Below are positions 12,445 through 33,633 of a DNA stretch of 64,000 nt, piece by piece (the first letter of the stretch is position 1; every line of letters begins with the position of its first letter). This stretch comes from Cyanobacteria bacterium auto_48_18 (lineage in GTDB: Bacteria > Cyanobacteriota > Vampirovibrionia > Obscuribacterales > Obscuribacteraceae), in assembly GCA_036170915.1 (NCBI GenBank), contig JAVHQC010000035.1, positions 264,234 to 328,233 on the forward strand, given 5' to 3'. Made by a program: the position numbers and the translations under genes. The notes below the pieces were generated by a model. That model saw only the letters and a program-made list of their open reading frames with translations, was not told the DNA's origin and did no database searches.

Positions 12445-12551
12445 AAGTTTCCAATTTTTTGATTCCTTATCGAGTCGAGTCTTCTCATTTTTTGACATCA
12501 ATAATTTGTTTAACAGTGCCACGAAAATACTGCCCAACGTCAAACTCTTCA

Positions 12552-15500: not shown

Positions 15501-15629
15501 GGCTAGTTCGGGATATACATCACTAGGAAGAGATTGAAACGACAGCACGCCAGCGATTGTAATGAGCACGATGAGAAAGTATAGAGCGCGGCTCTGCTTC
15601 AGTAAGTACTGAAGTATTTGGGTGATCAT
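12552..15629 (-). CDS. RND efflux permease (CusA/CzcA/AcrB family)
   Basis: 1025 aa; LNLMSLGG, GLVIDDAIVIVEN, GLVVKNGI and RLRPILMTT motifs. Confidence 0.93.
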   Translation of the reverse strand: MITQILQYLLKQSRALYFLIVLITIAGVLSFQSLPSDVYPELAFPRIAVIGAVGDIAPDRVLLTVTRPMEEAASQAYRVRWIRSKTIRGASELSIEFQPGTDMNFAWQQVQARIAEIRASLPASASLIVEPVTPAIFPVLNYNITSDTVPDSDLYNTVRYEIEPRLLQVPGVARAITQAGKIPEVAVQVDPAKLAAYKISIVDVATALTRTNQIEVLGRVDDRYKQNLIVGPGESVKPEQLYDLVIARSGSEPIYLKDIATIANSFRDPLSVISADGKEGIVVNIFRQPSSNVVAVSDGVAAEIERIKTTLPSGVKISKAYDQSRLVRQALASILQEIAIGIVFIIAILFAFLRSWKSTLIAALTIPLCAAAAFATMALMHQSLNLMSLGGLAIALGLVIDDAIVIVENIHRQLQKGLTSDQAVIAAVQELAGPVTSSTATTLVVFLPLGFISGVAGQFFTALTITLASAVAFSLFLALFVVPIFCAQVMKQQSHHAKEKEEASNQKGDWYRRVLKTSLCHPLAAGLFAVVILVTSYFLFTIIGTDFLPEMDEGSYVLDYLMPAGTSLPHTDQICQQIEKILGETPEVMAWTRRTGAELGLFATQPNTGDILVVLRPHDQRKRSTSDVMDEQRSKIAERIPQVETEFHPILADQLNDLAGAGNPVEIRVFGENREAIRSVAETIEAKLKKIHGLVDLALTSQDSAPQFDIQVDPLRAGRLLLTPLDVTDQVKAAFLGQVATQMRQGDKFVDVRVRFPDKVRFNPDMIGQLQILGKNGSVLPLNSIATISQINSEVEILREHQQRYVSVEASIEGRDLGSTVEEIRTILKPMSLPTGVSVNIGGIYLSQQESFQQLLLVLLLATALVYLMMIIQFRSFLQPLSILLVLPLGMLGVGLALLGTGTPLNVSSFMGLILLVGLVVKNGIILLEYANRLQDQGLSPEEALVEAGIIRLRPILMTTLCTLLALTPLWLSHGAGSELHRPLAITVIGGLSLSTLFTLIFVPLLARFTMKRQKHDAAAASANT

Positions 15630-16774
15630 TTTGGTGGCGCTCCTCGTTCCAGTATGGTTCCATCAACCACACCATAGCCACCTGATGTAACTACTTCATC
15701 GCCACTGGACAAGCCTTCAAATACAGGTACCAAGCCATCTTGAGCATCGCCGACCGTAACCTTTGTAAGCTTTAGCTTGCCGTTGCGAACAACATAAACG
15801 AAGTGCTCTGCAGGATCATCTGCGCCAGGAACGAAAGATGTTTGTGGAACAAGCGCCGCTCTGCTTGCCACTGTTGCAATGGCGACATTGACTTGTTGTC
15901 CTTCTTTAAGTCTTCCTTGATCATTGTTACAGAGTAATTGAATCGAAGACGTATTCTTTACGGTATCAACAATCGGACTAATCGCGGTTACTCTCGCATT
16001 GTATTTGATTCCGGGTAGTGCAACGGTGGTGATGATGGCCGTCTGGCCAACTCTAGGATCAGCGGGGGAATCCGCAGGCATGTTTGCATCAACAATTACC
16101 GAACTTAAGTTGACTACGTGCGCAATCGGTTTGCTGGGATCGGTCATGTCACCAACGTTCAAAAACCGTTGAGCAATAACGCCAGCGATGGGGGATACAA
16201 CCTTTGTCCATGCCAGTTGAGTAGAAACATTCAATGGTGCGGCCTTTGCTTCTGCTACTCGGGCTTGAGCAGCTTCCACCTGGGCTTTCAACAAGTCAAC
16301 CTGGCTCTGGGCAGCAATTACATCCTTTTCCGCAATGATATCTTTGGTAAATAAAGCCTCGGATCGACTGAGGTTTTTTTGCGCAAGATCAAGTGCAATC
16401 TTTGCCTGCTCAACCTGACTGAGAGCAGTGCGTTGGGGCGCCGTTGACTGTTGAAGTTGCGCCACTAACTGCTGGTCGTCCAGCACTGCAACAAGCTGGC
16501 CTTTTGAAACTTTTTGTCCTGGCACCACAAGAACTTTGTTTATTTTTCCTGCGATGTTAGGTGTTATAGAAACTGAATGATCTGGCAAAGCAGTTATCGT
16601 TCCCGGGAATGTAAGGCGCTTCTGAACTAAGACTATGCTTATGCGCATTGTCGGAAGGGATACCCGGTGTACCGCTTCAGTTTCTTCCTCATGTTTGGCT
16701 GCTTCTGGTTTTGTGCATCCTTGTAGCAAAAAAGCGAATCCTAGTGTCACAAAAATTTTCGTAGACTTCATCAT
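15626..16774 (-). CDS. RND membrane-fusion (periplasmic adaptor) lipoprotein
   Basis: Lipobox LQGC; lipoyl half-motifs (GQKVSKGQLV; SPIAGVI) flanking a coiled coil. Confidence 0.92.
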   Translation of the reverse strand: MMKSTKIFVTLGFAFLLQGCTKPEAAKHEEETEAVHRVSLPTMRISIVLVQKRLTFPGTITALPDHSVSITPNIAGKINKVLVVPGQKVSKGQLVAVLDDQQLVAQLQQSTAPQRTALSQVEQAKIALDLAQKNLSRSEALFTKDIIAEKDVIAAQSQVDLLKAQVEAAQARVAEAKAAPLNVSTQLAWTKVVSPIAGVIAQRFLNVGDMTDPSKPIAHVVNLSSVIVDANMPADSPADPRVGQTAIITTVALPGIKYNARVTAISPIVDTVKNTSSIQLLCNNDQGRLKEGQQVNVAIATVASRAALVPQTSFVPGADDPAEHFVYVVRNGKLKLTKVTVGDAQDGLVPVFEGLSSGDEVVTSGGYGVVDGTILERGAPPK

Positions 16775-18129
16775 AAGAGTGGGTGTCCTACAGACTGTTC
16801 AAGGTCATTTAACGCAAGTTGGTATTCCAATATTGATTGGAGATATTGAGTGCGAAGAAGATTATTGCGTTGTTGAACATCAAGCACTGCGTTTATATCA
16901 GTGTGTCCCAATTTATAGCCGACATCGGTACTAACGACCAATTGCTCCGAAGTGGGAATTGCTTCTTTTATATATCGACGTATTTTTGCACGCGACATTT
17001 CTACACGGCGATAGGCCAATGCAACTTCAGATTCTATGATATTTCGCTGGCCTATTTCTGCCTTACTCCATTGATTGATTTCAGCCTTTGCTTTAGCTAT
17101 TCGGCCTTGCTGTCGATCAAAAACCGGCAAGAACACTTGTGTTTGAACGTAGGGAACTTTTCGTAACTGTGGTCCGTTTATCCGATCTTCGATCATCAAT
17201 CCAGCGTTAACTAATCCACGTGGAAAGTTATCGCCTCTTGCCACTTTCAATTGCGCCCTTGCCACTTCAGCGGCTTGCTGAGCCACTTTAAGCTCGAATC
17301 TACTTTGAAATGCTTCTTCAACTAATTTTTGCCTGGGCGGCATCTCGGTCGAGAAATTTGGCAGAAGTCCAAAAGTGGTAGCCACGCTTTGCTCGTGCAG
17401 TAGTGAAGGCAGATTCATAGGACCATCAGCAGGTCTACCGATAAAAATATTTAGCTGTTCTCGATTGCGATCAATCATTATGTGCGCCTGTTCCGAATCT
17501 AATTCAGCTTGAATGACAGCCAGCTTCGCGCGATGAACATCAATCTTTGGCACATCGCCACTTTCAAATCTGTTCTCCGCATTTGCATACAATCTTTTAG
17601 TGAGCGCCACCAGCTCATCTTGAGTAGCAGCTAGTTCCGAAGCCATTATCAATTCAGCGTACAGACGCCTTGCTTGACCTCGAAAATTCCACAGAACTTT
17701 GGCAAGCTCAAGATCGGCCTGCTCAACTTGCTTACGTGCGGCCATAAGGCGGAAAAGAATTAGCCATGGCGCTTCAAATTGAATCATGCCCCCAAATTTA
17801 TAAGTGAACTGAACTTGTAGATCAGTCATAACACCCGGATTGGGAAAGACCGTGGCTTGCTTGAGAGCTGACTTAGCTAAAGGTATTTGAGAGCGGGCCT
17901 GCTCAAGTCTTGGACTATTACTAAGACCTTCGTTCATTACCTGGTGAACAGTGACTATGCTGGAGCGCAGCAAGACAGTGTCTTGTTGCGGGGTCGACAA
18001 GGGCGGCTGCGGCACGGTTGCCGCATGCAACTTCCCATCTGGGCTTCCATAAATTAAGAGCACTAAAAGCAGACCGGTAATTGCTTGGCCACGTCTTTTT
18101 TTAGAAATCCATCTGGCCATGAGAGTCAT
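16771..18129 (-). CDS. TolC-family outer membrane efflux protein
   Basis: Repeated OEP pattern (RFESGDVPKID; GYKLGHTDINAVLD); in operon with MFP and RND. Confidence 0.9.
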   Translation of the reverse strand: MTLMARWISKKRRGQAITGLLLVLLIYGSPDGKLHAATVPQPPLSTPQQDTVLLRSSIVTVHQVMNEGLSNSPRLEQARSQIPLAKSALKQATVFPNPGVMTDLQVQFTYKFGGMIQFEAPWLILFRLMAARKQVEQADLELAKVLWNFRGQARRLYAELIMASELAATQDELVALTKRLYANAENRFESGDVPKIDVHRAKLAVIQAELDSEQAHIMIDRNREQLNIFIGRPADGPMNLPSLLHEQSVATTFGLLPNFSTEMPPRQKLVEEAFQSRFELKVAQQAAEVARAQLKVARGDNFPRGLVNAGLMIEDRINGPQLRKVPYVQTQVFLPVFDRQQGRIAKAKAEINQWSKAEIGQRNIIESEVALAYRRVEMSRAKIRRYIKEAIPTSEQLVVSTDVGYKLGHTDINAVLDVQQRNNLLRTQYLQSILEYQLALNDLEQSVGHPLL

Positions 18130-19415
18130 TCGTTCCTGCCAATAGATGTACTTCGTGCGCCTTTAACATCGACCTTAAATGAAGTATGTTTTCCGGGCTC
18201 ACTAATCACCCCTATGGTGCCTTCATATTTTTCAACGATTGCCTTGACAATAGGCAGACCTAAACCATTGCCACCATTGTGGTAAGAGCGGGCTTGGTCT
18301 GCTCGCCAGAAACGCTCAAAAACCTTCGGAAGGTCGTCTGCATTTATCCCGATTCCTGAATCGGTTACGGTAATACGAATGCCTGCGTTAGTGACGGAAG
18401 CGGATATAGAGATAGTTCCAGCTTCTGGTGTGTACTTGATCGCATTGTCCAAAAGGTTTCTGAGAACGCAGTCTAGATCATCATTGTCCATGTACACATA
18501 AAGATGTTCAGGTACTTCAACTTGAAATTTCAAGTTCTTTCGGCCAGCACCAGGAGCAGCTTTTTCAAGAGCCGACTGAACTTGCTGACTTAGTTCAAGT
18601 TGAAAGGGGCAAGGACCCAATTTGGGTTTCTCTGCAAACTGCTCGGTTCTCGCTAGCATTAGCAAGTCTTCTGTTAGCTTTTCTATTTGCAGAGCGCCGC
18701 TGGCAATTGACTCAAACTTATCTTTATCTGTTAATCGCATGCCATCGGCATGACGCAATGCCACATTTGAGTTGGTGCGAATAGCAGTGATTGGCGTGCG
18801 CAATTCGTGCGCAGCGTCTGCACAAAATTGCTGCAAGAGTTGGATGTTTTCTTCGATTGGCCGAAGTGATTGCCGTACTAATAAAAACACGCCGACACTA
18901 CTAGCAGTGACTGCTACCAGCGCTCCGAGGATCAGACACTGAAGTAATAACGCTTTTTGGTTTTCAATGGCAACAAGGGGATGCCCTACCCTGACGTACC
19001 CTAAAAGCTTTCCGTTTGCTATTGCGGGTTTGGTAAAAACTAAAGCACGAGGAATTGGTTGCCATTGATACGATTCTCTGCGCTCAAGTGATACGGTTAA
19101 GGGCATAGCGCCCTTCTCGATATCGAGTTTGCCGTGTGGGTCAAACCATTGGATTCTCATACTCTTGAGAGTCGGTGCCGCCTCATCCGGAAGCGCAGAA
19201 ACAATCAAATCCGGTTTTCCATTGTGGTCTTTGCCGTAATCATCAAAATCAATGGAAGAAATTGCAGAGTCTGCAATAGAGCGTAGTTTATCCTTCAGCT
19301 GGACATCAAAAGCTGAACATCCGAAGCAATAGACCGCTCCACAAAATATGGCAAGAACGGTGACGAACACTACGATGTTCATAAACAATAAACGCTTTTG
19401 CCACTTCTCAAACAT
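18126..19415 (-). CDS. Sensor histidine kinase (OmpR-family partner)
   Basis: Two TMs; H-box DAAHELRTP, N-box NLLDNAIKYT, G boxes DSGIGI and GNGLGL. Confidence 0.95.
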   Translation of the reverse strand: MFEKWQKRLLFMNIVVFVTVLAIFCGAVYCFGCSAFDVQLKDKLRSIADSAISSIDFDDYGKDHNGKPDLIVSALPDEAAPTLKSMRIQWFDPHGKLDIEKGAMPLTVSLERRESYQWQPIPRALVFTKPAIANGKLLGYVRVGHPLVAIENQKALLLQCLILGALVAVTASSVGVFLLVRQSLRPIEENIQLLQQFCADAAHELRTPITAIRTNSNVALRHADGMRLTDKDKFESIASGALQIEKLTEDLLMLARTEQFAEKPKLGPCPFQLELSQQVQSALEKAAPGAGRKNLKFQVEVPEHLYVYMDNDDLDCVLRNLLDNAIKYTPEAGTISISASVTNAGIRITVTDSGIGINADDLPKVFERFWRADQARSYHNGGNGLGLPIVKAIVEKYEGTIGVISEPGKHTSFKVDVKGARSTSIGRNE

Positions 19416-20088
19416 CGCTTCTTAATCTATAGCCAAAACCATAAACAGTCTCTATCACTTGCTCGCTTACGCCGACAGCAGCAATTTTCTTTCGCAATGT
19501 TTTTATATGCGTCTTGATTGTTTCTCTTCCCCCGACAGATTCTGGAGACCAGAGTTTATGGAGAAGTTCCTCGCCTCTGAAAATAGCTGTTGGATTATGT
19601 GCAAAATGCATGAGGAGTCGATACTCTGTCGGTGTCACGTCTATGACATTTCCCAGATAGGTTACGAGACAAGAAACTGTGTTTATTTGCAGGGGGCCAC
19701 ATGAGATTACTGATGAACGGCTGTGGGCGACTGAGCGTCGAAATAGCGCACGTACTCTTGCAGACAACTCGTCCAAGTCGAATGGCTTTGTCACAAAGTC
19801 ATCAGCACCACAATCTAACCCGACAACCTTGTCCACTTTGCCGGATCTAGCAGTGAGCATCAAAATTGCGCAAGAATTGCCGCTCTCTCGTAGCTGCTTG
19901 CAAACGCTAAAACCACTTAGCTTTGGAAGCATAAGATCAAGCAGAACAACATCATACTGACCTGCTTTAGCCATTTCGAGCCCTTGCAAACCATCATGAG
20001 CAACGTCAACCACATAATTTTGATGTTGCAATTCTTCCTTAAGTGGAACAGCTATGCGCTTATCGTCTTCAACTATTAGGATCTTCAT
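19408..20088 (-). CDS. OmpR/PhoB-family response regulator
   Basis: KILIVEDD, LLDLMLP, GADDFVTKPF; wHTH ending IETVYGFGYRL. Confidence 0.95.
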   Translation of the reverse strand: MKILIVEDDKRIAVPLKEELQHQNYVVDVAHDGLQGLEMAKAGQYDVVLLDLMLPKLSGFSVCKQLRESGNSCAILMLTARSGKVDKVVGLDCGADDFVTKPFDLDELSARVRALFRRSVAHSRSSVISCGPLQINTVSCLVTYLGNVIDVTPTEYRLLMHFAHNPTAIFRGEELLHKLWSPESVGGRETIKTHIKTLRKKIAAVGVSEQVIETVYGFGYRLRSDV

Positions 20089-20130
20089 GTAGCTCGTCAA
20101 TTACGTATTCGTCGAGTTTAAGGCAGGGCA

Positions 20131-21432: not shown

Positions 21433-22305
21433 TTAAAGGTTGTGTGGCGGCTGAGGTTGCTGCGGCTGTTGTGGCGGTTGCGGCGGATTCATTTTATTCT
21501 GCAAAGCATCTTTGAGCATTTCGTTCTGGCGCAAGAGCGCCTTCAAGTGTTCATTGGCTATAGCCAACTCAGCCTGCAGCTCAGCTACAGTTTGCTCGTG
21601 CGAGACACCAGTCACAGGGTCACGTCCGGGCATCTTAGGCAGCAGCACATAACCCAATTGAACAGCCTTCAATGCCGCCGCAGTTCGCGTAGGCACTTTG
21701 AGCTTGGCCAGAATGCACTCAATATGTTTTTCTACTGTGCGCAGCTTCATGTCGAGCTCTTCGGCAATTTCTTTGTTGCGCAAATCAAGACGAATCAGCA
21801 CTTCAATCTCTCTATCGGTGAGATTGCAGTTAGGCATATTTGTAGTCGGGGCTTGCTTAACCAGTTGCGTAATCTTGGGATCGCAATAAGGCAAACCACG
21901 TGTAATTTGTTCGATAGCTTCAAAGAGTGTGCGCGGTCCTGAGCTCTTGAGGCAAAATCCGCGGGCGCCGGCGCGCATCAGTTGATTGTGATATTTAGTG
22001 GCATGGTAAGAATCGGTCAGTACCAGCACATTGGCATTAGGCAGTTCCATGCTGACTCTGCGGCATACTTCCACGCCATTGAGAACGTCCAGATCAACAT
22101 CGAGAATGACAAAATCTGGCCTTAATCTGCGAATCATTTCAGTGGCGGCCATACCATCGGCAGCCTCACCGACAATCTCTACAACTTCAGAAACTACTCG
22201 TTTGAGACCAAAACGAATTAATTCGTGTCTCTCACAGAGCACTGTTCGAGGCCGAAAAATTGAGGGTCTTTGCGTTGAATCCAAGAGTGTCTCCCGTCTA
22301 TCCAT
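21433..22305 (-). CDS. NarL/LuxR-family response regulator with atypical acidic pocket and Pro/Gln-rich tail
   Basis: Receiver VGEAADG...ILDVDL...NGVE...K; HTH LTDREIEVL...NKEIAEEL...TVEKHI. Confidence 0.88.
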   Translation of the reverse strand: MDRRETLLDSTQRPSIFRPRTVLCERHELIRFGLKRVVSEVVEIVGEAADGMAATEMIRRLRPDFVILDVDLDVLNGVEVCRRVSMELPNANVLVLTDSYHATKYHNQLMRAGARGFCLKSSGPRTLFEAIEQITRGLPYCDPKITQLVKQAPTTNMPNCNLTDREIEVLIRLDLRNKEIAEELDMKLRTVEKHIECILAKLKVPTRTAAALKAVQLGYVLLPKMPGRDPVTGVSHEQTVAELQAELAIANEHLKALLRQNEMLKDALQNKMNPPQPPQQPQQPQPPHNL

Positions 22306-22832
22306 CTGCCCTTTGAGAACTCCATGGCTTCGCCTATTGCAGCTCGGAATTATTGTAACAGCGTGGGCAGTCCTGTCACCATCAGGGCAGTAACTTCTTT
22401 ATATACCCTATATTCTCTACGATCTAATCCTTTACTCATTTGAACGAACCCTGAGCCCCTGGGCCTTTGCGGGCGGATGGAGAAACTCACTCCACAACTA
22501 TCAATGATGAAAAGGGGCATTATCAGACGCCACCAGCGATAACGCGCAAACACACCGCATATTCAGCATATATCATCTGCAACATACTTCTGCCGGACGA
22601 GCAGAATTTTGTCTTCGCCAGCAAAATAATCTATATGGGCGCTCAAGAGATAAACTAGTAGTATCTTTCTGCTTCGCGCTAGCTAAAGCAGCTGTGTTTG
22701 GGGGAATCTTACGAGAAGCATGGGAAAAATCCCAGTAGCAGGCTATTCTTTAAATGGTTAAGCTGACCTCATAATATTTATTCCAGGCACTGATAAATGG
22801 CCACAGACCGGCGTTCTTGAATTTTCAAAGAA

Positions 22833-24941
22833 GTGATGACAACTACAGGATTTAAAATCGAAAAAAAATTTCGCGACCTGGTAATTACAACTGGCCTTGT
22901 ATTTTCCATCGCCCCTATTGTCTCGCTGACAACAGCCGCCCCCGCCCAGGCCACCAAACTCAACGCCGCACCGCTTCCCCATCGTGGAGAAGCTAATTCT
23001 GACAACCAGAATAATTGGGGCAGGCCTACCAAAAACTTTTCACAGTCGCCCGAGCGCACAGCCTTGCCTCCATCTATGTGGGAGGGAAGGCGACCTGATT
23101 ATCGCGATGAAGAAAAGCGTAAAAAACTGGAAGAAGCTGCCAATGCCGTCAAAGCAGCTGCAGAAGCGAAAAAAGCACAAGAAGCTGTCAGGCGTGCAGA
23201 ACTTGACCGCATTAATGCCGGCAAGCAATATCAACAAACCGCCATCGATGCCAATAATCGAGGTGTGGCTCTTGGCCGTCAGGGTCGCATGAATGAAGCG
23301 ATTGCGCAGCATGAGCTGGCTTGCAAATATGATCCCGGCAACAAGATGTTTCGCACTAACCTGACCAGCGCCCGCACCATTTATGGTCAGCAGCGCATGG
23401 CGCAAAAGGATTATACGGGAGCCGCTCACCTTTTTCGCAAAGCACTGACCGCCGCTCAAGACAATTCGCTGGCGGCAAAATTATTGAATGAATCAATTCA
23501 AAAAACCGGCCTTGATCCCACACTTTCTGATAATCGTGTGGGAATAGGCGATCAGTTAGCGGCATCAGGTGATCTTGATGGCGCCATGATTGAGTATCAG
23601 CAAGCCATGCAGCTTGACCCCAGCGCCCGAACCTACGTCAAAATGGGCGATATGATGTTGCGTTATGGCCAGGCACCAAATGCTTTAAGCTGGTATCGCA
23701 ACGCTGTGGTTAAAGATACAAACTATGGCCCGGCTCACAGGCAGCTCGGCATGATGTATATGATGCAGAAAGATTATGCCTCCGCGGCAGCGTCTTTGCG
23801 AAAAGCGGTAATTCTTGATTCGAAAGATGCGGCAGCTGGTCAGGCTTTAATTGATATCTGGCGCAAACAGGTCTCTATCAATCCTGAGCTGGCTGAAAAT
23901 CACCTTGGCCTGGCTGGTGCCTTTCAGCTCACAGGCGATTTTCAATCGGCCGCCGGTGAATATTTGCAAGTTGAACAGCTTGACCCGGGCAACGCAAGAC
24001 TGGCTCCAGGGCGAGAAAGTTTGCAGAGGGCAATGAAGCATACAACAGCCGAAAAACACCGAGCTGCTGCCGAAGTATTTATCAGTCAGGGTCTGGCCCG
24101 CGACGCTCTGGCTGAAATTAGTCAGGCTGTCACTGTCGAACCGCGCAATGCCCGCTATCAATTTTTAATGGGCGAAGCATTAGAAAGCGGCGGAGATGTT
24201 CAAGGGGCATTGCGAGCCTATCACACTTCAGTTTTGATCGACCCTGAAAACAACCAGGAAGCAGCAGCAAGAATGCGCGATTTGCAATCAAAGATCAATG
24301 CTGGTGCCGGTTCTAACAATAGTAATGCTGGCGCCAACAACCCAGCTAATAAAAGAAGTGCTCGCACTCTTTATGAAGGCGTGCCGCCTCAATCTAATAG
24401 TAATGCTAGTGGCGGTGGTGGTGGCGCAGCAATAAGAGAAGCCAGGCAAGAAACACCGTTTACCGGCAGCTTCCGCACTCACGACGAGTCCGGAAACCCT
24501 GTACAGATGACTAATCCAGGTGTAGGTGCCGGCGCAGGTCAGCGAACCGAAAACGCAGTCCCTCAATCATCTCCACCACCACAAGCCCGTGCTGAGAGGC
24601 CGGCCCCTGCCAATGATAAACAGACTCGCGACAGCCAAACTACAGCTACGCTTAAAGCCTGCGATGAAATGGAAATGCGCCGAGATTTTCAGGGCGCTGC
24701 CAATTTATTGCGAGAAGCACTCTCCAATAATTTGCAAAATGCTGACATTCACCACCGCCTCGGTCTGAATTTACTCAGTTCAGGTCAACTTTCCGAGTCT
24801 GTCTCTGAGCTGCGCATTGCCAGCGCGCTTTCGCCCAGCAACAAAGTATTTGTGGCTGACCTGGCTAGAGCACTGAATATACACAAACGTTCTCTTTCAT
24901 CTGATTCAGATCACGTGCAAGGAGCCAATCCCGCTCAATGA
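22833..24941 (+). CDS. Exported multi-TPR protein
   Basis: Signal-like segment ending APAQA; many TPR units (e.g. AHRQLGMMY, NHLGLAGAF, IHHRLGLNL); stop overlaps the next start (ATGA). Confidence 0.85.
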   Translation: MMTTTGFKIEKKFRDLVITTGLVFSIAPIVSLTTAAPAQATKLNAAPLPHRGEANSDNQNNWGRPTKNFSQSPERTALPPSMWEGRRPDYRDEEKRKKLEEAANAVKAAAEAKKAQEAVRRAELDRINAGKQYQQTAIDANNRGVALGRQGRMNEAIAQHELACKYDPGNKMFRTNLTSARTIYGQQRMAQKDYTGAAHLFRKALTAAQDNSLAAKLLNESIQKTGLDPTLSDNRVGIGDQLAASGDLDGAMIEYQQAMQLDPSARTYVKMGDMMLRYGQAPNALSWYRNAVVKDTNYGPAHRQLGMMYMMQKDYASAAASLRKAVILDSKDAAAGQALIDIWRKQVSINPELAENHLGLAGAFQLTGDFQSAAGEYLQVEQLDPGNARLAPGRESLQRAMKHTTAEKHRAAAEVFISQGLARDALAEISQAVTVEPRNARYQFLMGEALESGGDVQGALRAYHTSVLIDPENNQEAAARMRDLQSKINAGAGSNNSNAGANNPANKRSARTLYEGVPPQSNSNASGGGGGAAIREARQETPFTGSFRTHDESGNPVQMTNPGVGAGAGQRTENAVPQSSPPPQARAERPAPANDKQTRDSQTTATLKACDEMEMRRDFQGAANLLREALSNNLQNADIHHRLGLNLLSSGQLSESVSELRIASALSPSNKVFVADLARALNIHKRSLSSDSDHVQGANPAQ

Positions 24942-27900
24942 GTTTTTATTTTCAGGCACCAGACTTAGCTGAATTTCCACGTCGCTCTTACAGGCGTTTC
25001 CTGGAAGAAACCATCGGCAATTTATTTTCCGAAATTTCGCCTGTAGCGAGTGAATATTCCGCTCGCTTCGAACTCACTTTCATTGGCCCAGACGGTAAAG
25101 TGCACTGGCGTTTTGAAGATTATGCGCCTGATTCGGGCTATCCGACGTCGCCTGAACAAGCTCGCAAATCAAACATGACGCACTCTAAACGCATGATGAT
25201 GGAAGTGTGGTTGCGCGATACCTTGACCGGCGAATTGCGCAAATCAACCGCTTACGTAACCGACGTACCGGTGATTACAGACCGTGGTACTTTTGTTATT
25301 AACGGCTCTGAGCGCGTGGTGTTAGGTCAACTGGTGCGCGCCCCGGGCGTCTATTTCAGCCAGGGTGGTCAGACCAGCTACAAAGCGCTTTTGCTGGCAG
25401 AAATGGGTGCACCCATTGCTTTTGAATTAGAACTCGACGCTAGCGGTGGCAAAACCAGCCGGGCAAAATGCCGCATCAAATTACCTAAAAGAAGTTGGGT
25501 AGCTGCCACCACAGTACTAGCGGCGATGGGCGTCGACGCCCAAGATTTGCAAAAACGCATCGGTAGTTTGCTCGAACGCAATCGCATCGACTTTAAACCA
25601 TTAACTCAAACTGAAGCATTAGCCGTTGTTGGCCGCTCGTGGAAACCTGATGGTGGTGGTGGCGCATCTGGTGGCGCTACTGCCCTGAAAGAATTGACTG
25701 ACAGGCGCCGCTATTCCCTGGGCACTCTCGGTCGCAAACGTGTCAACGCCAAACTAGGTATTGAAGAACTATCACAGCAACTGAGTGCCGACGACATTCT
25801 GGCAGCAGTGGAATATTTACTCGGCTTACCGCTGGACATGGGCCGCACCGATAATATCGACAGTTTAGAAAATCGCCACTTGCGTGGTGTAGGCGAAACT
25901 CTCACAAAGGCTGTGAGGCCAGCACTCGGCCAAATGACCCGCTCTATTCGCACGCGCCTTGAGATGAATGAAGATGAAGAAATAGGCTCACCTAACGAGT
26001 TGCTCGATATTCGCCCCTTCTCAAATGCGCTCAATAAATATTTTGTCGGCAACCCTCTGGTACAGTATCTCGACCAACAAAACCCGCTCTCAGAGCTATC
26101 TCACAGGCGCAGAATCACGTCATTCGGACCAGGTGGTATCGACCCCAATGCAGCACCTGTAGAAATGCGCGACGTGCACCCGTCTCAAATTGGTCGCGTT
26201 TGCCTGGTAGAGTCTCCCGAAGGTAAGAATTGCGGCATGGTCTCTTATATGGCCACTTACTGCCGTATTGACGACGACGGTTTCATGACTGTGCCCTATA
26301 GAAAAGTATTCAATGGCCTGGTATCAGATGAGGTGCAATTCCTCACCCCAGCTGATGACAAACGCTTTACTCTGGCACCACCTGATACCAAGGTGGTTGA
26401 AAACAAAATTTCAGGTCCGATGGTGGCGGCCAGGCGGGGCGAGAACTTCATTGAAGTAACACCCGAAGAAGTAGACATGATCGGTATTGCCCCGCAAGGC
26501 TTCATATCGGTAGGCTCCGGGCTGATTCCTTTCTTAGAACACGACGACGCCAACCGCGCCCTCATGGGTGGTGGCATGATGCGCCAAACTCTGCCTCTGA
26601 TTCGGCCAGAGCGGCCGCGAGTAGGCACAGGTATGGAGCGTATCGTTGCTCGCTCCAGCGGACATTCCATTATTGCCAGACGAGCAGGAACGGTGACGAA
26701 AGTAACCGGCCGAGAAATTGTGGTGGCACAGTCGTCCGGCGAATCACGTTCTTATAATTTGACTAGATTTGATCGCACCAATCAGAACACCATTTTAGAC
26801 CAGAGACCGTCGGTGCAGGTAGGACAGCAGGTAGAAACAGGTCAAATTATTGCTGACGGACCAGCCATTGACTCTGGCGAACTGGCTCTGGGACGCAATC
26901 TATTGATTGCTTTCATGCCCTGGTATGGCTATAACTTTGAAGACGCTATTGTGGTGCGTGAGGGCCTGGTAAAAGATCAAAAACTAACCCACATTGAAAT
27001 TGAGAAACATTCTTGCGGCGTGCACCAAACTTTGCGTGGCCCAGAAATTCTTACCCCTGAACTGCCTAACGTCACAGCTAAAGATCTTGAGCACCTGGAT
27101 GACCGCGGCATCGCGAAAATCGGCTGTTATGTGAATCCTGGCGATATTCTTGTGGCAAAATTATCACCTAAAGAGGCTAAAGCTCTTTCAGCTGAAGAAG
27201 AATTGCTGCAAGCAATTTTCGGCAAAGTGGCTGAAGAAATGGGTGATACCAGTTTGCGTGTGCCGCACGGCTCAGGTGGCCGAGTGATTGACGTGCGCAT
27301 TTTCACACCAGAGACCACCCCTGAACTGAAGGCCGGTATCATCTGCGATATCGAAGTCTTAATCGCCCGCATGTGCCCTGTTGAAGTGGGCGACAAATTA
27401 GCTGGACGCCACGGCAATAAAGGTATTGTTTCAATTATCGTGCCCGATTGCGACATGCCCTTCATGCCCGACGGTACGCCTGTAGATATCTGTCTAAACG
27501 CCCTCGGTGTTCCCAGCCGTATGAATGTAGGCCAGGTTTTCGATACTCAACTTGGATATTACGCCAGCATTCTCAACCGCTACTACCGCATTCACCAGTT
27601 TGACGAATCGATTGCACCAGATGCATCATTCAGACTGGTTACAGACGCTCTTAAAGAAGTGCGCAAAGTGCCAGGCTATGAATGGATGGGTGAAGACGGC
27701 AAAGTAGTCTTGACTGACGGCCGCACTGGCGAGAGATTTGACCGCCCTGTGCTGGTAGGTCGGCAGTATATGCTCAAATTAAATCAGCTGGTTCTGCACA
27801 AAATTAATGCTCGCTCTGGTTTGGGTGGCCCGTATGCCGCAGTCACACAGCAACCGGTGGGCGGAAAAGCCAATCATGGCGGCCAGCGTATGGGAGAAAT

Positions 27901-28771
27901 GGAAGTCTGGGGCATTCAAGCCTATGGCGCGGCCAATATTCTGCACGAAATGATGACCATTAAGGCTGACGACATTCAAGGCAGGCACCAGTCATATGCT
28001 GACATGGTGCAAGGCAACCCACTTACGCCAGGTGGTCGCACAGCCGCTTTTGACGGTCTCTGCTGCGAAATTCGCGGCCTTGGCATGGAGATGACCCTGG
28101 GCAAGGTAATTGACTCCTTCGAACCCATTGAAGACCGCTCCTGCGCAGTACCAAATGGGACTTCTACGAAAACTCTGGAAGAGAAATATCAGGTCTCATC
28201 AGTACAGCAAATGGAGAATAACGAAGGCCAGAAAGTGCTGGAGATCCCTGCTGGGGACTTCGTTCCGGTCTCCAAGCCACCCGCCTTACCGATCATAACT
28301 TCGATGACTAGCGGAAAACACGGTGGGAAACCACGTATTGAAATGTCCCAGGAACCGTTGTTTGATGACATAGACGAAAGCGCGCAGGCGCCAGGTGATT
28401 CTTCCGCCACCGACGATTTCATCGAAAGGCTATTAAGAGAAGAAGAAGAGGAAGAGCGAAAAGCAAAGGAAACCAAAGACGGTCCGGCAAACTATCTGGC
28501 AGAAGTTCTCACCAGGGAATTAGGTGCGCAATCACCACTCAAAACTTTCCCCTCACTGAGCGAACTGTCCACACTAGCCCAACAGCTGGTGCTTGTTTCT
28601 CAAAAAGATAGCCACCCGCAAACTAATCTAGACGACCAAATCAGCGAACTTAGCGAATTCACAGAGCTAAGCGGCTACTTCAAAAAAGCAGCACAAAAAA
28701 CCACAAGTTCAACTTCAACCTTAAATACAACTGAATCGCAAGCGATTCACCAAGAAGACGACTCAAGTTAA
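24938..28771 (+). CDS. rpoB: Divergent orphan DNA-directed RNA polymerase beta subunit homolog (probable RpoB paralog) with acidic C-terminal extension
   Basis: GTFVINGSERV, DQQNPLSELSHRRR, EHDDANRALM, GYNFEDA, GDKLAGRHGNKG, GVPSRMNVGQ and GGQRMGEME motifs in canonical order; no rpoC adjacent. Confidence 0.92.
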   Translation: MSFYFQAPDLAEFPRRSYRRFLEETIGNLFSEISPVASEYSARFELTFIGPDGKVHWRFEDYAPDSGYPTSPEQARKSNMTHSKRMMMEVWLRDTLTGELRKSTAYVTDVPVITDRGTFVINGSERVVLGQLVRAPGVYFSQGGQTSYKALLLAEMGAPIAFELELDASGGKTSRAKCRIKLPKRSWVAATTVLAAMGVDAQDLQKRIGSLLERNRIDFKPLTQTEALAVVGRSWKPDGGGGASGGATALKELTDRRRYSLGTLGRKRVNAKLGIEELSQQLSADDILAAVEYLLGLPLDMGRTDNIDSLENRHLRGVGETLTKAVRPALGQMTRSIRTRLEMNEDEEIGSPNELLDIRPFSNALNKYFVGNPLVQYLDQQNPLSELSHRRRITSFGPGGIDPNAAPVEMRDVHPSQIGRVCLVESPEGKNCGMVSYMATYCRIDDDGFMTVPYRKVFNGLVSDEVQFLTPADDKRFTLAPPDTKVVENKISGPMVAARRGENFIEVTPEEVDMIGIAPQGFISVGSGLIPFLEHDDANRALMGGGMMRQTLPLIRPERPRVGTGMERIVARSSGHSIIARRAGTVTKVTGREIVVAQSSGESRSYNLTRFDRTNQNTILDQRPSVQVGQQVETGQIIADGPAIDSGELALGRNLLIAFMPWYGYNFEDAIVVREGLVKDQKLTHIEIEKHSCGVHQTLRGPEILTPELPNVTAKDLEHLDDRGIAKIGCYVNPGDILVAKLSPKEAKALSAEEELLQAIFGKVAEEMGDTSLRVPHGSGGRVIDVRIFTPETTPELKAGIICDIEVLIARMCPVEVGDKLAGRHGNKGIVSIIVPDCDMPFMPDGTPVDICLNALGVPSRMNVGQVFDTQLGYYASILNRYYRIHQFDESIAPDASFRLVTDALKEVRKVPGYEWMGEDGKVVLTDGRTGERFDRPVLVGRQYMLKLNQLVLHKINARSGLGGPYAAVTQQPVGGKANHGGQRMGEMEVWGIQAYGAANILHEMMTIKADDIQGRHQSYADMVQGNPLTPGGRTAAFDGLCCEIRGLGMEMTLGKVIDSFEPIEDRSCAVPNGTSTKTLEEKYQVSSVQQMENNEGQKVLEIPAGDFVPVSKPPALPIITSMTSGKHGGKPRIEMSQEPLFDDIDESAQAPGDSSATDDFIERLLREEEEEERKAKETKDGPANYLAEVLTRELGAQSPLKTFPSLSELSTLAQQLVLVSQKDSHPQTNLDDQISELSEFTELSGYFKKAAQKTTSSTSTLNTTESQAIHQEDDSS

Positions 28772-28781
28772 ATAGAGCAGG

Positions 28782-29738
28782 ATGAAAACCATGACAGGCG
28801 CCGGGAAAAGTCAGCTAAACAGCAAAAGCAGTTTCTGCTTGACCAACCTTCTAAGCGCCTTTTTGTTTGCTGCAGTGATTGCCCTCACTTCATCAGTCAG
28901 TGCTCAAGCCCAGTTTGGTGGCGCTCAACCACCACCCGTAGGTGACGGCAGCACTCCTGCCCCGGTCACCCCTGGCGATACTTCTGGTGGTGCCGCCGCT
29001 CCGTCGAACAGCGCTGATGCAGGCCCCGGCACAAACAATGCCATCGGCACAGGCCGCGACCGCACTGTGGTTCGCATATTCAAGCAATCGGCAGGTCGTG
29101 GCGCACGCATGGTGCAAACTTTGCGCCCTGATACTCTTTCTGATGAAGCTAGAGCCAGAATCGACGGCATTCTCGGTATCAACATGTTGTCCGGCGAACA
29201 AGCCATCGACATCACCGCTACCGATGCCCAGATTGAACAAATTCAAGAAGCGCTGGCAGCTTATCCACAGACCAGTAACAATGCCGGCCGCAAGACTATT
29301 ACTGGTGACAATCCAGCTGCTGGTTATCCAAGGCCAGGCCGCAACAGCATTTATCGCTTCGATAATCAGTTGCCTACAGTGGCCACCTTCTCTCGTTATT
29401 TAGTTATTTTAGGCGTAGTCTCGGCCACAGTATTTATGGCTCTAGCAGCCTATTCTGTGGTGATGGGTAACCCTTATGGTGGTGCCAGGGTAATTGGCGC
29501 AGCATCTGGTTTGCTCTTCTTAATGGCCGCTTACACAATCTGGAAAATTGTCACCATGAATACTTTCGGTGCCAATTCACCAGACACTGCTAGAGCTCAA
29601 AATCGAACTCAGCAAGGTCTTGTACAAGACGCCTTCATGACCAGGCCGCTCACGCCGGTGACACCTAACGGTGGTGTCAATGGTGGTGCTGCCAGAGGCG
29701 GAGTGCCGGTGCAACCATTCGGCAACGCAGGCAACTAG
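28782..29738 (+). CDS. Exported protein with C-terminal two-TM TrbC/VirB2 pilin-like segment
   Basis: Signal peptide ending AQA; YLVILGVVSATVFMALAAYSVVMG...ARVIGAASGLLFLMAAYTIW hydrophobic hairpin. Confidence 0.55.
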   Translation: MKTMTGAGKSQLNSKSSFCLTNLLSAFLFAAVIALTSSVSAQAQFGGAQPPPVGDGSTPAPVTPGDTSGGAAAPSNSADAGPGTNNAIGTGRDRTVVRIFKQSAGRGARMVQTLRPDTLSDEARARIDGILGINMLSGEQAIDITATDAQIEQIQEALAAYPQTSNNAGRKTITGDNPAAGYPRPGRNSIYRFDNQLPTVATFSRYLVILGVVSATVFMALAAYSVVMGNPYGGARVIGAASGLLFLMAAYTIWKIVTMNTFGANSPDTARAQNRTQQGLVQDAFMTRPLTPVTPNGGVNGGAARGGVPVQPFGNAGN

Positions 29739-29774: not shown

Positions 29775-30482
29775 GTGAAAAGAGTGGACACCACAAAACT
29801 GTTGAAGAGATTGAATATCTCTCTGATAGTGGCCGCCCTAGCCGGCGTGCAAGTGGCAAGCGCTCAACCTAAAAATGAATTTTTCGGCGGCAATTCCAGC
29901 ACTCCTGCACAAAAAGGTTATTCCAATTTTCAGGGTCCTGCGCCAAAAGGTCCGGCCAACGGTGTCACCGCCAAAGGTGCCGGAGCGATGGATTCTGACG
30001 CGAGCCCAGAGCTAACCTGGTTTGAAAAATTCGATGGCATTAGTTATCACGGCCGACCTACCGACTCTGAAAGAATCATTTTGAACATGCCCTTTAACCA
30101 GGAGGCAGAGCGTGTACAAAGATGGACAGCAGCTGCAAGTGCTGTTGCTAAAAGATATCGCGAAACTTCGAAAGCGCTGAAGACTCTACACGCACCTCGC
30201 GGAAGAGCTGATTTGGATGATCTCTGTTATGCACGAATTAACTGGTTTAACGATGCAGCTTTAGTTTACGAGGAGATGATTCGGCCAAGAAATCCTGCTC
30301 AAACCATTGAAGAATTGAACGACCAGTTAAGACAGGTGAAAGACCAAGCTGGTGCACTAAAAAATCAAAATGTGACAATCTTGGCCTCTGACCGAAAATT
30401 GAGGCGATTTTATCGAGTTCATGCACCAAAAGAAACCGACGCCCTTACCGGATACATCAACGGCCAATACAAAAAGAATTAG
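29775..30482 (+). CDS. Hypothetical exported alpha-helical protein
   Basis: Signal peptide ending ASA; co-oriented, 36 bp after the previous gene. Confidence 0.7.
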   Translation: MKRVDTTKLLKRLNISLIVAALAGVQVASAQPKNEFFGGNSSTPAQKGYSNFQGPAPKGPANGVTAKGAGAMDSDASPELTWFEKFDGISYHGRPTDSERIILNMPFNQEAERVQRWTAAASAVAKRYRETSKALKTLHAPRGRADLDDLCYARINWFNDAALVYEEMIRPRNPAQTIEELNDQLRQVKDQAGALKNQNVTILASDRKLRRFYRVHAPKETDALTGYINGQYKKN

Positions 30483-30565: not shown

Positions 30566-31327
30566 ATGGCTATTCAGTTAAATGACAGAGACCATCTTAT
30601 TTTCAAACTAATTGATGAGCATGAGGTCTTACTTGAGAAACATATTTCGTGGTTTATTGCTGGTGAAGAAAAACCAGTCTTGATTAGAGATCGGCTGCGC
30701 AAGCTCTTCTATCTTGATTATTTGCTTTGTCATCGTCATGGCAGCAAATTGCCATGGTGGACAACTCCCACCAAGCCACTGGTTTACATGCTCTCTCCTT
30801 TAACGAGAACCATCGCTGGTGCTCCTGAAGCAGACGACACCATGCTCGATAATGAGTTCCAACGGCACCACCTCGAGGTCGCCAATCTGCGCATGCTTTA
30901 CCTGGTTGCACAAAAAGACGGCCAAATAAGTGCATTTCAGTGGACAACTTGTAAGCAAGCCAAAAACGCTGAAACAGGACTTGACGCCAAAGTCGAATTT
31001 CGCAATGGCACATCGACAACCAAAGTCGGTCTGGTCAACAATCTCGCCCTTGACCAAGCAAGTATCACCAAACTGACTCAATCTCTCGCCACTGAAGAAA
31101 TCGATTCATTGCTGCTTATCTCTCGTGATGACCTGGCGCAAAAAGCATTGCAACAACTGGTTGCTCAAGCTGGCGGAGAACTGGCCAAACGGGCATTGTT
31201 CTCGACTCACCAGGAGTTATATAGAGACGGCATTGTCGCTACCCGCTGGCAATCAGTAGCCGGCGCTGCAACGCTTAAGCCAGAAGTTGCATATATAGGA
31301 ACGATGGCTCAGCCGATTGCCGTATAG
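30566..31327 (+). CDS. Replication-relaxation (Replic_Relax)-like protein, probably degenerate
   Basis: N-terminal LNDRDHLIFKLIDEH...RDRLRKL..LDYL wHTH pattern, VYMLS and HHLEVANL motifs; GAGGA RBS. Confidence 0.55.
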   Translation: MAIQLNDRDHLIFKLIDEHEVLLEKHISWFIAGEEKPVLIRDRLRKLFYLDYLLCHRHGSKLPWWTTPTKPLVYMLSPLTRTIAGAPEADDTMLDNEFQRHHLEVANLRMLYLVAQKDGQISAFQWTTCKQAKNAETGLDAKVEFRNGTSTTKVGLVNNLALDQASITKLTQSLATEEIDSLLLISRDDLAQKALQQLVAQAGGELAKRALFSTHQELYRDGIVATRWQSVAGAATLKPEVAYIGTMAQPIAV

Positions 31328-31412: not shown

Positions 31413-31476
31413 GAAGGCTAGCATGGGGATGCTGGCCTTCGTGCTTAGGCCTTAGCCTGGCGGCTTCCAGGCTGAG
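31413..31476. other. Two adjacent strong hairpins in the intergenic region upstream of a TadG-like gene
   Basis: GAAGGCTAGCAT-GGGG-ATGCTGGCCTTC and CTTAGCCTGG-CGGCTT-CCAGGCTGAG, each with one G-U pair; no U-tract. Confidence 0.5.
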
Positions 31477-31569: not shown

Positions 31570-33633
31570 ATGACTAAAAATCAGAGAAATCTGATCAAAC
31601 GCAGGCAACGAGGCAATATGCTCGTCTTTGCCACTGCCATAACGGTCTTTCTTGTGGCCGTTCTAGCCTTCTTCAGTCTCGGTTATGTGAGACTGCTGGG
31701 CAGCAATAGCGAACAACGAAACGCGATTGAAGCGGCGTCGCTAGCAGCTGCTCGAGATTTGAGCATGATCGCAGTAGATACCGATGAGTATGGTTGGGTC
31801 TCAGTATCCGACGCGGCACCAACAGGCTCGGTAACCACAGCCAATGATGCGTACAACGTGCCAGTCAGAGGCATTAACAGCATCATCGGTACAATTCGCC
31901 TCGACTTAATTATTGCCAATGAGCTGGCCGATGCCAATCTCAAACAAATTATCAAAGCTGATTTAGTCAAGGCTAAAGCAGCCCAAGCCAAATTAGCTAC
32001 TGAACTGAAAAAAGCAATTGTGCCAGGCTATATAGCCAAAGACATTAACAATCAAAATATCAACGTATACAAAGATGCGGAAGATGCTTATACCGCTAAT
32101 CAAATTCGCATGACCGGCTCGTCTAACTATGTCAAAAATTCCCTCAAGCTGTCTCTGGGCAGTATCGCCAATGGTGGTGGCGTCACCAACACTCCGCTGC
32201 CCCGCCCCATTTCCAAAGCCAGCGTTCCAAGCGGCGGATCGCAGAATAATTTTTACCGCTCATACTTCAATCAGACTTTCGACGGAGAAGATTTTGTCTT
32301 CGCCGGCATTGGTGATGCCATCAAACTGATTGATGTAAAAAACTGGACCCCCTCTGTAGCCTCACTGCCATATCAGATGCAGACTGTTGTTAAAGCTGAG
32401 GCCGACCAACAAATGAATAATGGTCAAAGTGGACAGACTTATACCATTCATGCCATCGCATGCGCCCAGCCTGCCAACGTGGCTGATCCAAAACCAGCAC
32501 CTGGTGCACTAAGCTTCAGCTTCCCAGACGGCATACCACCTGAAATTACAAAGCCCATAGATATGTTTACCGATGCTCAACTGAACAGTGGTAATAACTG
32601 CAATGTGCAAACTTCCAAAAATGGTGACTATCCAATTGGCAAACCCACCACACAAATCGTCGATATTACCTGGCCATATCCTTCTCTAGCTGAGAGCACT
32701 GGTAATGTCTTCCGTCTAGCCCTGTTCGACTGGTGGAAAAGAGCCGGGACTAAACTGAACATTGATTCGGCAGTAACGATGATGACCGACCCCAAATACA
32801 ATTTCAACACTCCGGTGCCGGACAAAATCGATTGGAAAACTCCTGCCAAACTCGGCGACAAAACCATCTACAACTTGGGTCCTATCCCCAACGGCAACAT
32901 CCATATTTATCGAATTGATCCTGCCAGTGGTCAAATCAGCTATCAAGACAAATCACTAGCTCCAGTGCAATATAGTGTGGCCGGCAACCAACAACTGTAT
33001 TCAGAGAATATTGACGCTATCACAAAAAGCAAAGTTGGTACTCAGACTGTAGGACCATTCGAGTTTCCTAATACCGGCTATCTCGTTGATACGGTTTATT
33101 TGAAGCCAGTCTATGACGTTTATATACGTGACCAGGTACATCAACCTGGCAAAGCGCTGGGAGGTGACCACGCCGGAGAGCCGATGGATTATCCGCTAGT
33201 TTCGCAAGCCACCACCGGCAGAGATCTAGGTGGTGCCGGATTTGGTGCAGCTAAGCCACCACCCATTGACCAAAGGGCCAAGGGTTTGCCTCCAGCAATC
33301 ACTAACCAGTCAGACTTCGCTGAAACCGCTGGTTTCCCTATGAATTCGAGCTTTTACAATAACTACTCAGCTGGCCCTGGTGTGAAAAATATGCGGCCTA
33401 CTTATCAGAAAAACGGTATGGCTGTTGATGTTCGCTTTAGAAGGCAGGTTGATACAGGCACGTTCAAAGATAGTCTCGGTTTTAGCATAGGCTATGTAGG
33501 CGAAAAATATCCGCCTGGCACACCGGCGATGACTGGCATTCCGTATGTGCCACCACCCCCACCTACACCACCTGTTCCAGATCCGGCAGCGCCAGCTGAT
33601 CCAGCAGCGCCACCGGCAACACCGACACCATAA
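31570..33633 (+). CDS. Large TadG-like (Tad pilus) protein
   Basis: RRQRG followed by a hydrophobic helix, then EQRNAIEAASLAAARDL (Tad 'LQ-A-DAAALAA' pattern); Pro-rich C-terminus. Confidence 0.7.
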   Translation: MTKNQRNLIKRRQRGNMLVFATAITVFLVAVLAFFSLGYVRLLGSNSEQRNAIEAASLAAARDLSMIAVDTDEYGWVSVSDAAPTGSVTTANDAYNVPVRGINSIIGTIRLDLIIANELADANLKQIIKADLVKAKAAQAKLATELKKAIVPGYIAKDINNQNINVYKDAEDAYTANQIRMTGSSNYVKNSLKLSLGSIANGGGVTNTPLPRPISKASVPSGGSQNNFYRSYFNQTFDGEDFVFAGIGDAIKLIDVKNWTPSVASLPYQMQTVVKAEADQQMNNGQSGQTYTIHAIACAQPANVADPKPAPGALSFSFPDGIPPEITKPIDMFTDAQLNSGNNCNVQTSKNGDYPIGKPTTQIVDITWPYPSLAESTGNVFRLALFDWWKRAGTKLNIDSAVTMMTDPKYNFNTPVPDKIDWKTPAKLGDKTIYNLGPIPNGNIHIYRIDPASGQISYQDKSLAPVQYSVAGNQQLYSENIDAITKSKVGTQTVGPFEFPNTGYLVDTVYLKPVYDVYIRDQVHQPGKALGGDHAGEPMDYPLVSQATTGRDLGGAGFGAAKPPPIDQRAKGLPPAITNQSDFAETAGFPMNSSFYNNYSAGPGVKNMRPTYQKNGMAVDVRFRRQVDTGTFKDSLGFSIGYVGEKYPPGTPAMTGIPYVPPPPPTPPVPDPAAPADPAAPPATPTP

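Follow-up and report, generated by a model that had tools for sequence, protein, structure and literature searches.

It is standard teaching that bacteria have one core RNA polymerase (RNAP), which is redirected by sigma factors, and the bacterial exceptions known to us are near-identical, drug-resistant duplicates of rpoB. In plants, the second subunit of Pol IV and Pol V, NRPD/E2, is a duplicate core catalytic subunit that went through a burst of change followed by renewed constraint: its metal site was kept, its fork loop and DNA-path residues were altered, and other subunits are shared with the ordinary enzyme. Phage multisubunit RNAPs of the phiKZ/AR9 type bring their own beta-prime part. 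According to an excerpt of PMC5431353, regulated expression of an actinomycete second rpoB (Nonomuraea rpoB(R), Nocardia farcinica rpoB2) reshapes the transcriptome, and these copies (rpoB(R) being that of Nonomuraea gerenzanensis) depart from the ordinary one by five substitutions and six deleted residues, with H526N present. Here, we describe a far more divergent second rpoB, designated rpoB2, in a 64,000-nucleotide stretch of DNA ("the window") from Cyanobacteria bacterium auto_48_18 (GenBank assembly GCA_036170915.1, contig JAVHQC010000035.1), a member of the Obscuribacterales, an order of uncultured, non-photosynthetic cyanobacterial relatives.

24938..28771, + strand: rpoB2, divergent RNA polymerase beta paralog, 1277 amino acids (aa) in one open frame.

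Both profile and fold assign the rpoB2 product to the RpoB family, yet it is not the housekeeping copy. On balance, the sequence comparisons make it probable that rpoB2 encodes an inducible alternative beta subunit (beta2) that would join the host core to give a second RNAP with other promoter behavior. The original prediction, made from the window alone, had described an intact, uninterrupted 1277-aa RpoB open reading frame (ORF) with the conserved beta blocks in order, and both the frame and the Pfam matches bear this out: Rpb2 domains 1 (below cut-off), 2, 3, 45, 6, and 7 follow one another in a beta core of approximately aa 1 to 1060 (to about 28117), and the remainder is a tail, acidic and variable, in which short motifs are conserved. 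The tail is about 215 aa long, with a mean of 20% Asp plus Glu among 55 tails, and carries the motifs LEI.AG.[YF] (45/55) and FPS[LF].[ED]L (34/55). rpoB2 scored above both NCBIfam rpoB equivalog cut-offs (1057 bits against 896 and 1013 against 801), about 600 bits lower than the ordinary RpoB of the same genome (1613 and 1653 bits). Because it lies above the TIGR02013 cut-off, rpoB2 may pass as a marker gene and be counted as contamination. The fold from the single sequence was unusable (predicted local distance difference test, pLDDT, 33), and an AlphaFold2 model built on a 76-row alignment was used instead; it showed a normal beta fold (pLDDT 75.4, predicted template modeling score 0.65) in which pLDDT is low for loops packing against nucleic acid or the other subunits. 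Foldseek matched this model to cyanobacterial beta at template modeling scores of 0.77 to 0.79, with 0.79 to 8gzh_C.

A tblastn search of the own genome with rpoB2 gave two matches, rpoB2 itself and a copy on contig C16 (C16:70506-73628) at 43% identity. The latter heads an ordinary rpoB-rpoC1-rpoC2 operon that contains the genome's only rpoC1 and rpoC2, so rpoB2 is not the single-copy RpoB of its lineage. Family searches found a single rpoC1 in the own genome (G000) and in G003, G007, G019, G020, G023, G041, and G055 (G003 and G041 being single-contig genomes), one rpoA over the cut-off per genome in 5/5 genomes, and no second beta-prime or alpha gene in the genomes searched in this way. No NADFDGD-type catalytic motif beyond the one was found in the own genome, which is 86% complete. 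Since rpoC1, rpoA, and this motif are all single, only beta is duplicated. The own genome encodes 12 sigma factors, six of them group 1/2-like, and four lineages of group 1/2-like sigma factors recur in the reduced genomes of the order.

To describe which residues were kept, we surveyed 366 columns conserved in 29 ordinary RpoBs of the class and 22 outside ones against 101 rpoB2 rows. rpoB2 keeps 236 of these universal columns, has refixed 86 at a different residue, and varies at 44. The catalytic motifs named in the original prediction fall where expected on Escherichia coli RpoB, with E668/D669 at E813/D814, K820/K828 at K1065/K1073, and R861 at R1106; the quoted flap tip lies at aa 753 to 762, and the altered stretches ALMGGGMMRQ, HPSQIGR, and TAAFDGL are all present as quoted. 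In E. coli numbering, E813, D814, R678, Q688, K1065, K1073, R1106, E565, G566, Q513, R529, and H526 are kept in 101/101 rows; D516, D446, R151, and R1269 are kept as well, as are the flap-tip hydrophobic residues L901, L902, I905 (Val in 24 rows), and F906. Refixed positions include W183P, D199P, R470Q, R540P, R542A, G544P, and V547M; R371K/G373D in the gate loop, which then runs into glycines; the flap-tip charges (K900E, R903Q, E908K, and K909V); Q510P, S512V, S531T, L533F, and S574Y; and Q686M, D1240L, D1241H, H1244N, E1321A, and S1322A. H1237Q is found in 101/101 rows and N684G in 100/101. Among these changes, H1237Q, D1240L/D1241H/H1244N, W183P, D199P, the glycine-rich gate loop, R540P/R542A, and S574Y, together with the acidic tail, go beyond those first noted. 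Grouped into residue sets, which were drawn from recall and papers after the alignment had been seen and which make the contrast a descriptive one, the kept fractions are 13/15 for catalytic and RNA contacts, 7/7 for the switch-3 template contacts, 4/4 for the flap-tip hydrophobic residues, 7/20 for the non-template strand and bubble, 0/4 for the flap-tip charges, and 7/17 for the rifampicin pocket, where 10/17 positions, including S574Y, are changed.

From the architecture of RNAP, invariant catalytic residues of beta make sense only with a beta-prime partner. The flap-tip hydrophobic residues dock sigma region 4. An excerpt of PMC11001881 describes W183 as stacking on non-template bases with D199/R200, R542 as acting at the downstream fork, R371 and R470 as lining the non-template path, and the flap tip as binding NusA; an excerpt of bioRxiv 2021.04.06.438613 has H1237, K1065, and K1073 holding the phosphate of the primer or initiating nucleotide.

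Selection on rpoB2 was estimated as the pairwise Nei-Gojobori ratio of nonsynonymous to synonymous change (dN/dS) over the core. Within the genus, dN/dS was 0.004 to 0.020, and three unsaturated deeper pairs, from G016, gave 0.058 to 0.086; most cross-genus pairs were saturated. Ordinary rpoB gave 0 to 0.047, the dN of rpoB2 was about twice that of the ordinary copy, and the rpoB2 tail reached 0.15 to 0.27. Within the genus, the dS of rpoB2 was 2- to 10-fold that of the ordinary copy, as would fit lower expression, and no such gap was seen in deeper pairs. Values near 1 with frequent pseudogenization were not what we found: dN/dS is far below 1, and a check of 13 short or odd loci among the 92 carriers turned up only 3 core frameshifts. 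These 13 loci comprise one core frameshift each, possibly a sequencing error, in G049, G055, and G058, two loci with tail-only breaks, one with a normal end, and the rest at contig ends. The GC content of rpoB2 is about 0.51, against 0.46 to 0.51 in the window, and at third codon positions (GC3) it is 0.49 against 0.48 in the long ORFs of the genome; thus, rpoB2 does not have the appearance of a recent import.

Phylogenetic analysis placed the rpoB2 paralogs in one clade of their own with a stem of 4.55 changes per site (LG+C20), unlike a housekeeping RpoB, which would branch with the lineage's RpoB at an ordinary rate. In the LG+C20 tree, this clade falls inside the RpoBs of the same class, and in FastTree, at the base of the phylum; FastTree was run after 23/68 rows had been dropped, and 26 rows were used from the LG+C20 tree on, in both cases for speed. 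The approximately unbiased test rejected neither a sister relationship with the ordinary RpoB of the order (p 0.053) nor a placement alongside outgroups from outside the phylum (p 0.21). Near aa 60, rpoB2 has a short insert in common with the ordinary RpoB of the order and with that of five further class genomes, four others lacking it; three outside proteins have an insert of their own near this site. The likeliest history, not a proven one, would be a duplication inside the class and then a burst of change. The clade, the stem, and the low dN/dS uphold the earlier description of an old paralog under selection. Its label "subfunctionalized" is less fitting than neofunctionalized, because a very long stem was followed by renewed constraint on the new residues.

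The range of rpoB2 was examined with a lobe piece specific to it (aa 142-261). This probe matched 92/107 genomes of the Obscuribacterales, with no stop in any match: 90/103 other genomes in the family and 1/3 in the sister family. The genomes are metagenome bins with an estimated contamination of 1 to 12%. Among high-quality genomes of the order, the piece was found in 36/39. In two of the misses, G063 and G066, the TPR gene that precedes rpoB2 runs to the contig end and the 253-aa gene that closes the operon is still present; the third, G025, is without all cassette genes tested and also without the regulator gene, possibly through a binning gap. In G026 (88% complete), the regulator is kept with a different neighbor and the cassette is absent, which looks like real loss or rearrangement. 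One bin, G020 (8% contamination), holds two full cassettes (L059 and L056) flanked by the same genes; the bin is probably mixed, and a third copy is the less likely explanation.

Outside the order, 13/13 genomes of the class gave a single match at 42 to 45% and no paralog, and 70 further genomes of the phylum gave no paralog-level match (66 ordinary-level matches, 4 none). A protein search was bimodal over aa 30 to 330, with 99 proteins at 60 to 96% and 21 at 28 to 40% among 8000 candidates scored; two of the 99 are labeled Planktothrix sp., probably from mislabeled bins. No rpoB2 paralog was found among 56 viral loci, none of which exceeded 44% over the full length. rpoB2 is thus order-wide and conserved, more broadly than first noted, so that the word "orphan" holds for the locus only and not for the gene, which is a core gene of the order. 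At the locus itself, no rpoC or ribosomal protein gene was found among 30 neighboring ORFs scanned, and pyrF, dacA, and a lysA-like gene gave ordinary Pfam matches, in agreement with the conventional neighbors described before.

Upstream of the operon, the following elements precede the first gene.

22701..22734, + strand: double-box element; box 1, (T/G)GGGA-N4-TACGA, at 22701-22714, and box 2, TGGGA-N4-TCCCA, at 22721-22734.
22736..22764, + strand: putative -35 (TAGCAG) and -10 (TAAGCT), 17-18 base pairs (bp) apart, abutting box 2.

The spacing between the two boxes is 20 bp, and the -35 reads TAGACT in most relatives. A motif search in 31 upstream regions scored 22.9 bits against 11 for shuffled sequences, and the consensus, TGGGA-N4-TACG(A), then TGGGA-N4-(C/T)CCCA, TAGACT, 17 to 18 bp, and TAAGCT, is found in 31/35 regions. 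A simple palindrome, GGGA-N4-TCCC, fitted only 8/35 regions and was replaced by the double-box pattern. The strict double box occurs in 89/107 genomes of the order, one to three times per genome and 0 times in the reversed control, counts that come from non-independent kin and show conservation rather than statistics; a looser version was not found in G025 or G026, nor in three genomes from other orders. There was no Rfam match for an RNA element in 22200 to 23000, and a generic promoter scan was uninformative (10 sites, 8.6 expected). Activator-dependent promoters are laid out with dyad boxes that touch the -35, and the double box is a likely activator site.

Of 25 double boxes examined away from rpoB2, 16 lie before one 76- to 79-aa protein, 8 before large proteins, and 1 before no ORF that passed the filter used. 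Those large proteins that have matches in the own genome hit an 893-aa gene on C20, and the own genome has both targets (C16:104288-104524, 78 aa, and C20:145989-148670, 893 aa). The 78-aa protein, for which there is no Pfam family, is present in 11/11 genomes of the order and 0/50 others and is 58 to 95% identical across the order; its gene (L214:4286-4525, - strand; C16:104288-104524 in the own genome) is about 30 kb from ordinary rpoB. The 893-aa protein (L200:11990-14671, - strand) has glycine-rich hydrophobic N-terminal helices, a coiled or low-complexity middle, and no Pfam family. A further regulon member may be marked by a degenerate double box (L215:3956-3990; C33:173955 in the own genome) that has exported proteins of unknown family on either side.

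The genes and signals around rpoB2 are as follows.

21433..22305, - strand: LuxR/NarL-type response regulator, divergent from the operon, 82-97% identical across the order.
22352..22379, - strand: sigma70-like promoter (TG + TACAAT) for the regulator gene; conserved in 9/9 aligned regions.
22833..24941, + strand: TPR protein, 702 aa, first operon gene, with a signal-peptide-like N-terminus (by eye).
24920..24924, + strand: Shine-Dalgarno-like AGGAG within the TPR gene, near its end; the stop of that gene overlaps the rpoB2 start (ATGA).
28782..29738, + strand: 318-aa protein, exported or in the membrane, with two hydrophobic helices at its C-terminus; no Pfam family.
29775..30482, + strand: 235-aa protein, signal-peptide-like start, no Pfam family.
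30566..31327, + strand: 253-aa cytoplasmic protein with a winged-helix-like N-terminus (by eye).
31451..31476, + strand: hairpin with a weak T tail, possible operon end.

This order, with the response regulator divergent and the TPR gene, rpoB2, and the genes for the 318-, 235-, and 253-aa proteins following one another, was found in almost every locus of sufficient length (48 loci were compared, with some redundancy, and one of them has no match for the 318-aa gene). In most relatives compared, a purine-rich GGAG- or GGTG-type site precedes rpoB2. The stop codon of the TPR gene either overlaps the start codon of rpoB2 or abuts it. As a candidate activator acting at the double box, the most obvious protein is the divergent LuxR-type regulator. 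The receiver domain of response regulators usually starts with an acidic pair; this one has an atypical start, LCERH, and its phospho-acceptor position reads Glu in G026.

Neither the 253-aa nor the 318-aa protein gave a significant Pfam or PDB match by hidden Markov model (HMM). The 318-aa protein has a TrbC/VirB2-pilin likeness by Atlas (0.79), a weak lead only. The first 78 residues of the 253-aa protein are nearly invariant (27 rows); Atlas placed it at 0.94 to a cluster with 64% PF13814 (Replic_Relax), and 0/27 members match PF13814 in Pfam. A profile search with its family gave 28 matches, nearly all from the family itself, and no match to the protein was found in 13 class genomes of other orders or in 4 other genomes of the phylum. 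Past the operon, 31570-33633 (+ strand) encodes a protein of 687 aa without a Pfam match, whose hydrophobic N-terminal stretch looks Tad/pilin-like by eye; it occurs in tandem copies at this place in several genomes of the same genus. On the other side, a two-component pair plus RND efflux genes (12552-20100, within 11845-20100, - strand) lie between GerMN and LmeA-like genes that are adjacent in relatives, indicating a lineage-specific insertion.

Under the reading that we favor, of an inducible alternative beta, an activator would bind the double box beside the -35 and switch on the TPR-rpoB2 operon and a small regulon. Beta2 would be made coupled to the TPR protein and would replace the ordinary beta in the host core of single alpha, single split beta-prime, and omega. 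The resulting core, with its active-centre residues kept, should be catalytically competent, and the lobe, gate loop, rim of the core-recognition pocket, fork loop 2, and flap-tip charges would be its rebuilt parts. Because the active centre is kept and the non-template-strand surfaces and flap-tip charges are rebuilt, we infer an enzyme that would open, escape, and pause at promoters differently, would prefer other sigma factors or regulators, and would re-program transcription for a particular life stage or condition; that beta2 is translated, assembles with host subunits, and is active, which protein binds the element, and which condition induces the operon all belong to the same inference. 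A bolder form, in which the Obscuribacterales run two core RNAPs switched by beta exchange, the inducible one having its own promoter-opening rules and gene set and possibly being guided by the winged-helix protein, is tentative and falls a little short of an even chance.

Several observations weigh against the favored reading. No sigma factor was confined to rpoB2 carriers among 51 sigma proteins from seven genomes (the sigma sets of G003 and G028 being incomplete). Most operon partners look exported, so that a role in transcription would not be an obvious fit, and the cassette is absent from two reduced sister-family assemblies, hence rpoB2 may be dispensable. Change is spread over all regions, with identity to the ordinary copy ranging from 18 to 76% by region, and the beta-prime-facing C-terminal region is only 34% identical. 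H1237 is Gln in all rows, and the RNA-path residues N684, R540, and Q510 are also lost; because of these losses, initiation by beta2 could be weak.

This last point leads to an unlikely alternative, that beta2 is a regulator forming, with beta-prime (and sigma), a poorly initiating or idle core that throttles or stores the transcription machinery, for example, on entry to dormancy. H1237, N684, R540, R542, Q510, and W183 are lost in nearly all rows, the long acidic tail could mimic nucleic acid, and there is only one beta-prime to compete for. A decoy, however, should lose its metal and NTP (nucleoside triphosphate) residues, which are invariant in 101/101 rows after a stem of several changes per site, and the replacement residues are themselves invariant. 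That beta2 serves instead as a back-up subunit when antibiotics or phage inhibitors hit the normal enzyme, as for Nocardia rpoB2, seems improbable, although sites that we take to be those of other RNAP inhibitors (N684, 544-545, E1279, and S1322) are changed and only 7/17 rifampicin-pocket positions are kept, with S531T, L533F, and S574Y among the replacements. S531, L533, and S574Y figure in E. coli rifampicin resistance in an excerpt of PMC7073797, and the excerpt of PMC5431353 supplies the precedent. Yet 57% of the core differs and the 86 refixed positions lie all over the protein, far more than the actinomycete copy needs; moreover, H526 and D516 are kept, and stable vertical inheritance with low dN/dS gives no sign of an arms race.

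The exported, weakly pilin-like, and Replic_Relax-like operon partners would also suit a polymerase dedicated to some envelope-linked process involving DNA (its uptake or transfer, or an attack on a host cell), as would the 253-aa protein, with its near-invariant N-terminus and its occurrence only with the cassette in the genomes tested, and the loss of specifically non-template-strand contacts. Such a polymerase would act on unusual templates, perhaps sigma-free and guided by the 253-aa protein, and would make primers or short RNAs rather than mRNA. We regard both the process and this mode of action as quite improbable: HMM searches gave no Pfam or PDB match for either partner, the flap-tip hydrophobic residues are kept 4/4, and gene order around the operon is conserved too, so that linkage alone proves little. 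An artefact, whether contamination, a prophage gene, or a decaying pseudogene, might be suspected from bins with 1 to 12% contamination and from the single core frameshifts present in 3 of 13 short or odd loci, but this has next to no probability and is refuted by synteny and selection, as the same chromosomal neighborhood recurs across the order, single-contig genomes included, GC3 is native, dN/dS is far below 1, and no viral locus exceeds 44% over the full length.

We found no published description of rpoB2 in the literature searched, which left supplements and subscription journals outside its scope; the main text of PMC4040986 contains 0 mentions of rpoB or RNA polymerase, and an excerpt of PMC8047818 does not mention rpoB2. 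A 43%-identical beta under strong selection across an order would amount to a second enzyme obtained by exchanging one subunit and, if this is true, to a level of control over transcription that sits above the switching of sigma factors, the bacterial equivalent of the specialized eukaryotic polymerases. The 86 refixed residues are a natural experiment on which "invariant" sites (H1237, N684, W183, R540, R542, and the gate loop) catalysis can spare, and a regulon defined by a clear DNA element offers a handle on the life cycle of the Obscuribacterales.

Compared with known systems, rpoB2 shares domain order, fold, and catalytic residues with cyanobacterial and melainabacterial RpoB (TIGR02013 and PRK00405; PDB 8syi and 8gzg) and likewise lacks the large E. 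coli inserts; it differs in its location away from rpoC, its own operon and element, and its acidic tail. Phage multisubunit RNAPs also place a second two-barrel polymerase gene in the cell, but rpoB2 is a chromosomal, full-length cellular beta only, and its origin as a phage or mobile RNAP was rejected on the single rpoC1/rpoC2, the conserved chromosomal synteny, and the absence of a viral paralog among the loci searched. The likeness to NRPD/E2 is one of analogy, not kinship, as that case is eukaryotic and both large subunits are duplicated. With the actinomycete second rpoB, as far as the excerpt describes it, rpoB2 shares the presence of two rpoB genes with shared other subunits and changes in the rifampicin pocket and fork; the actinomycete copies are near-identical and carry H526N, whereas rpoB2 keeps H526, differs over 57% of its core, is ancient and fixed in its order, and belongs to another phylum. 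Bacteria with two rpoB genes are thus already known, and rpoB2 stands at the far edge of that class; if beta2 has a promoter set of its own, it would be categorically new.

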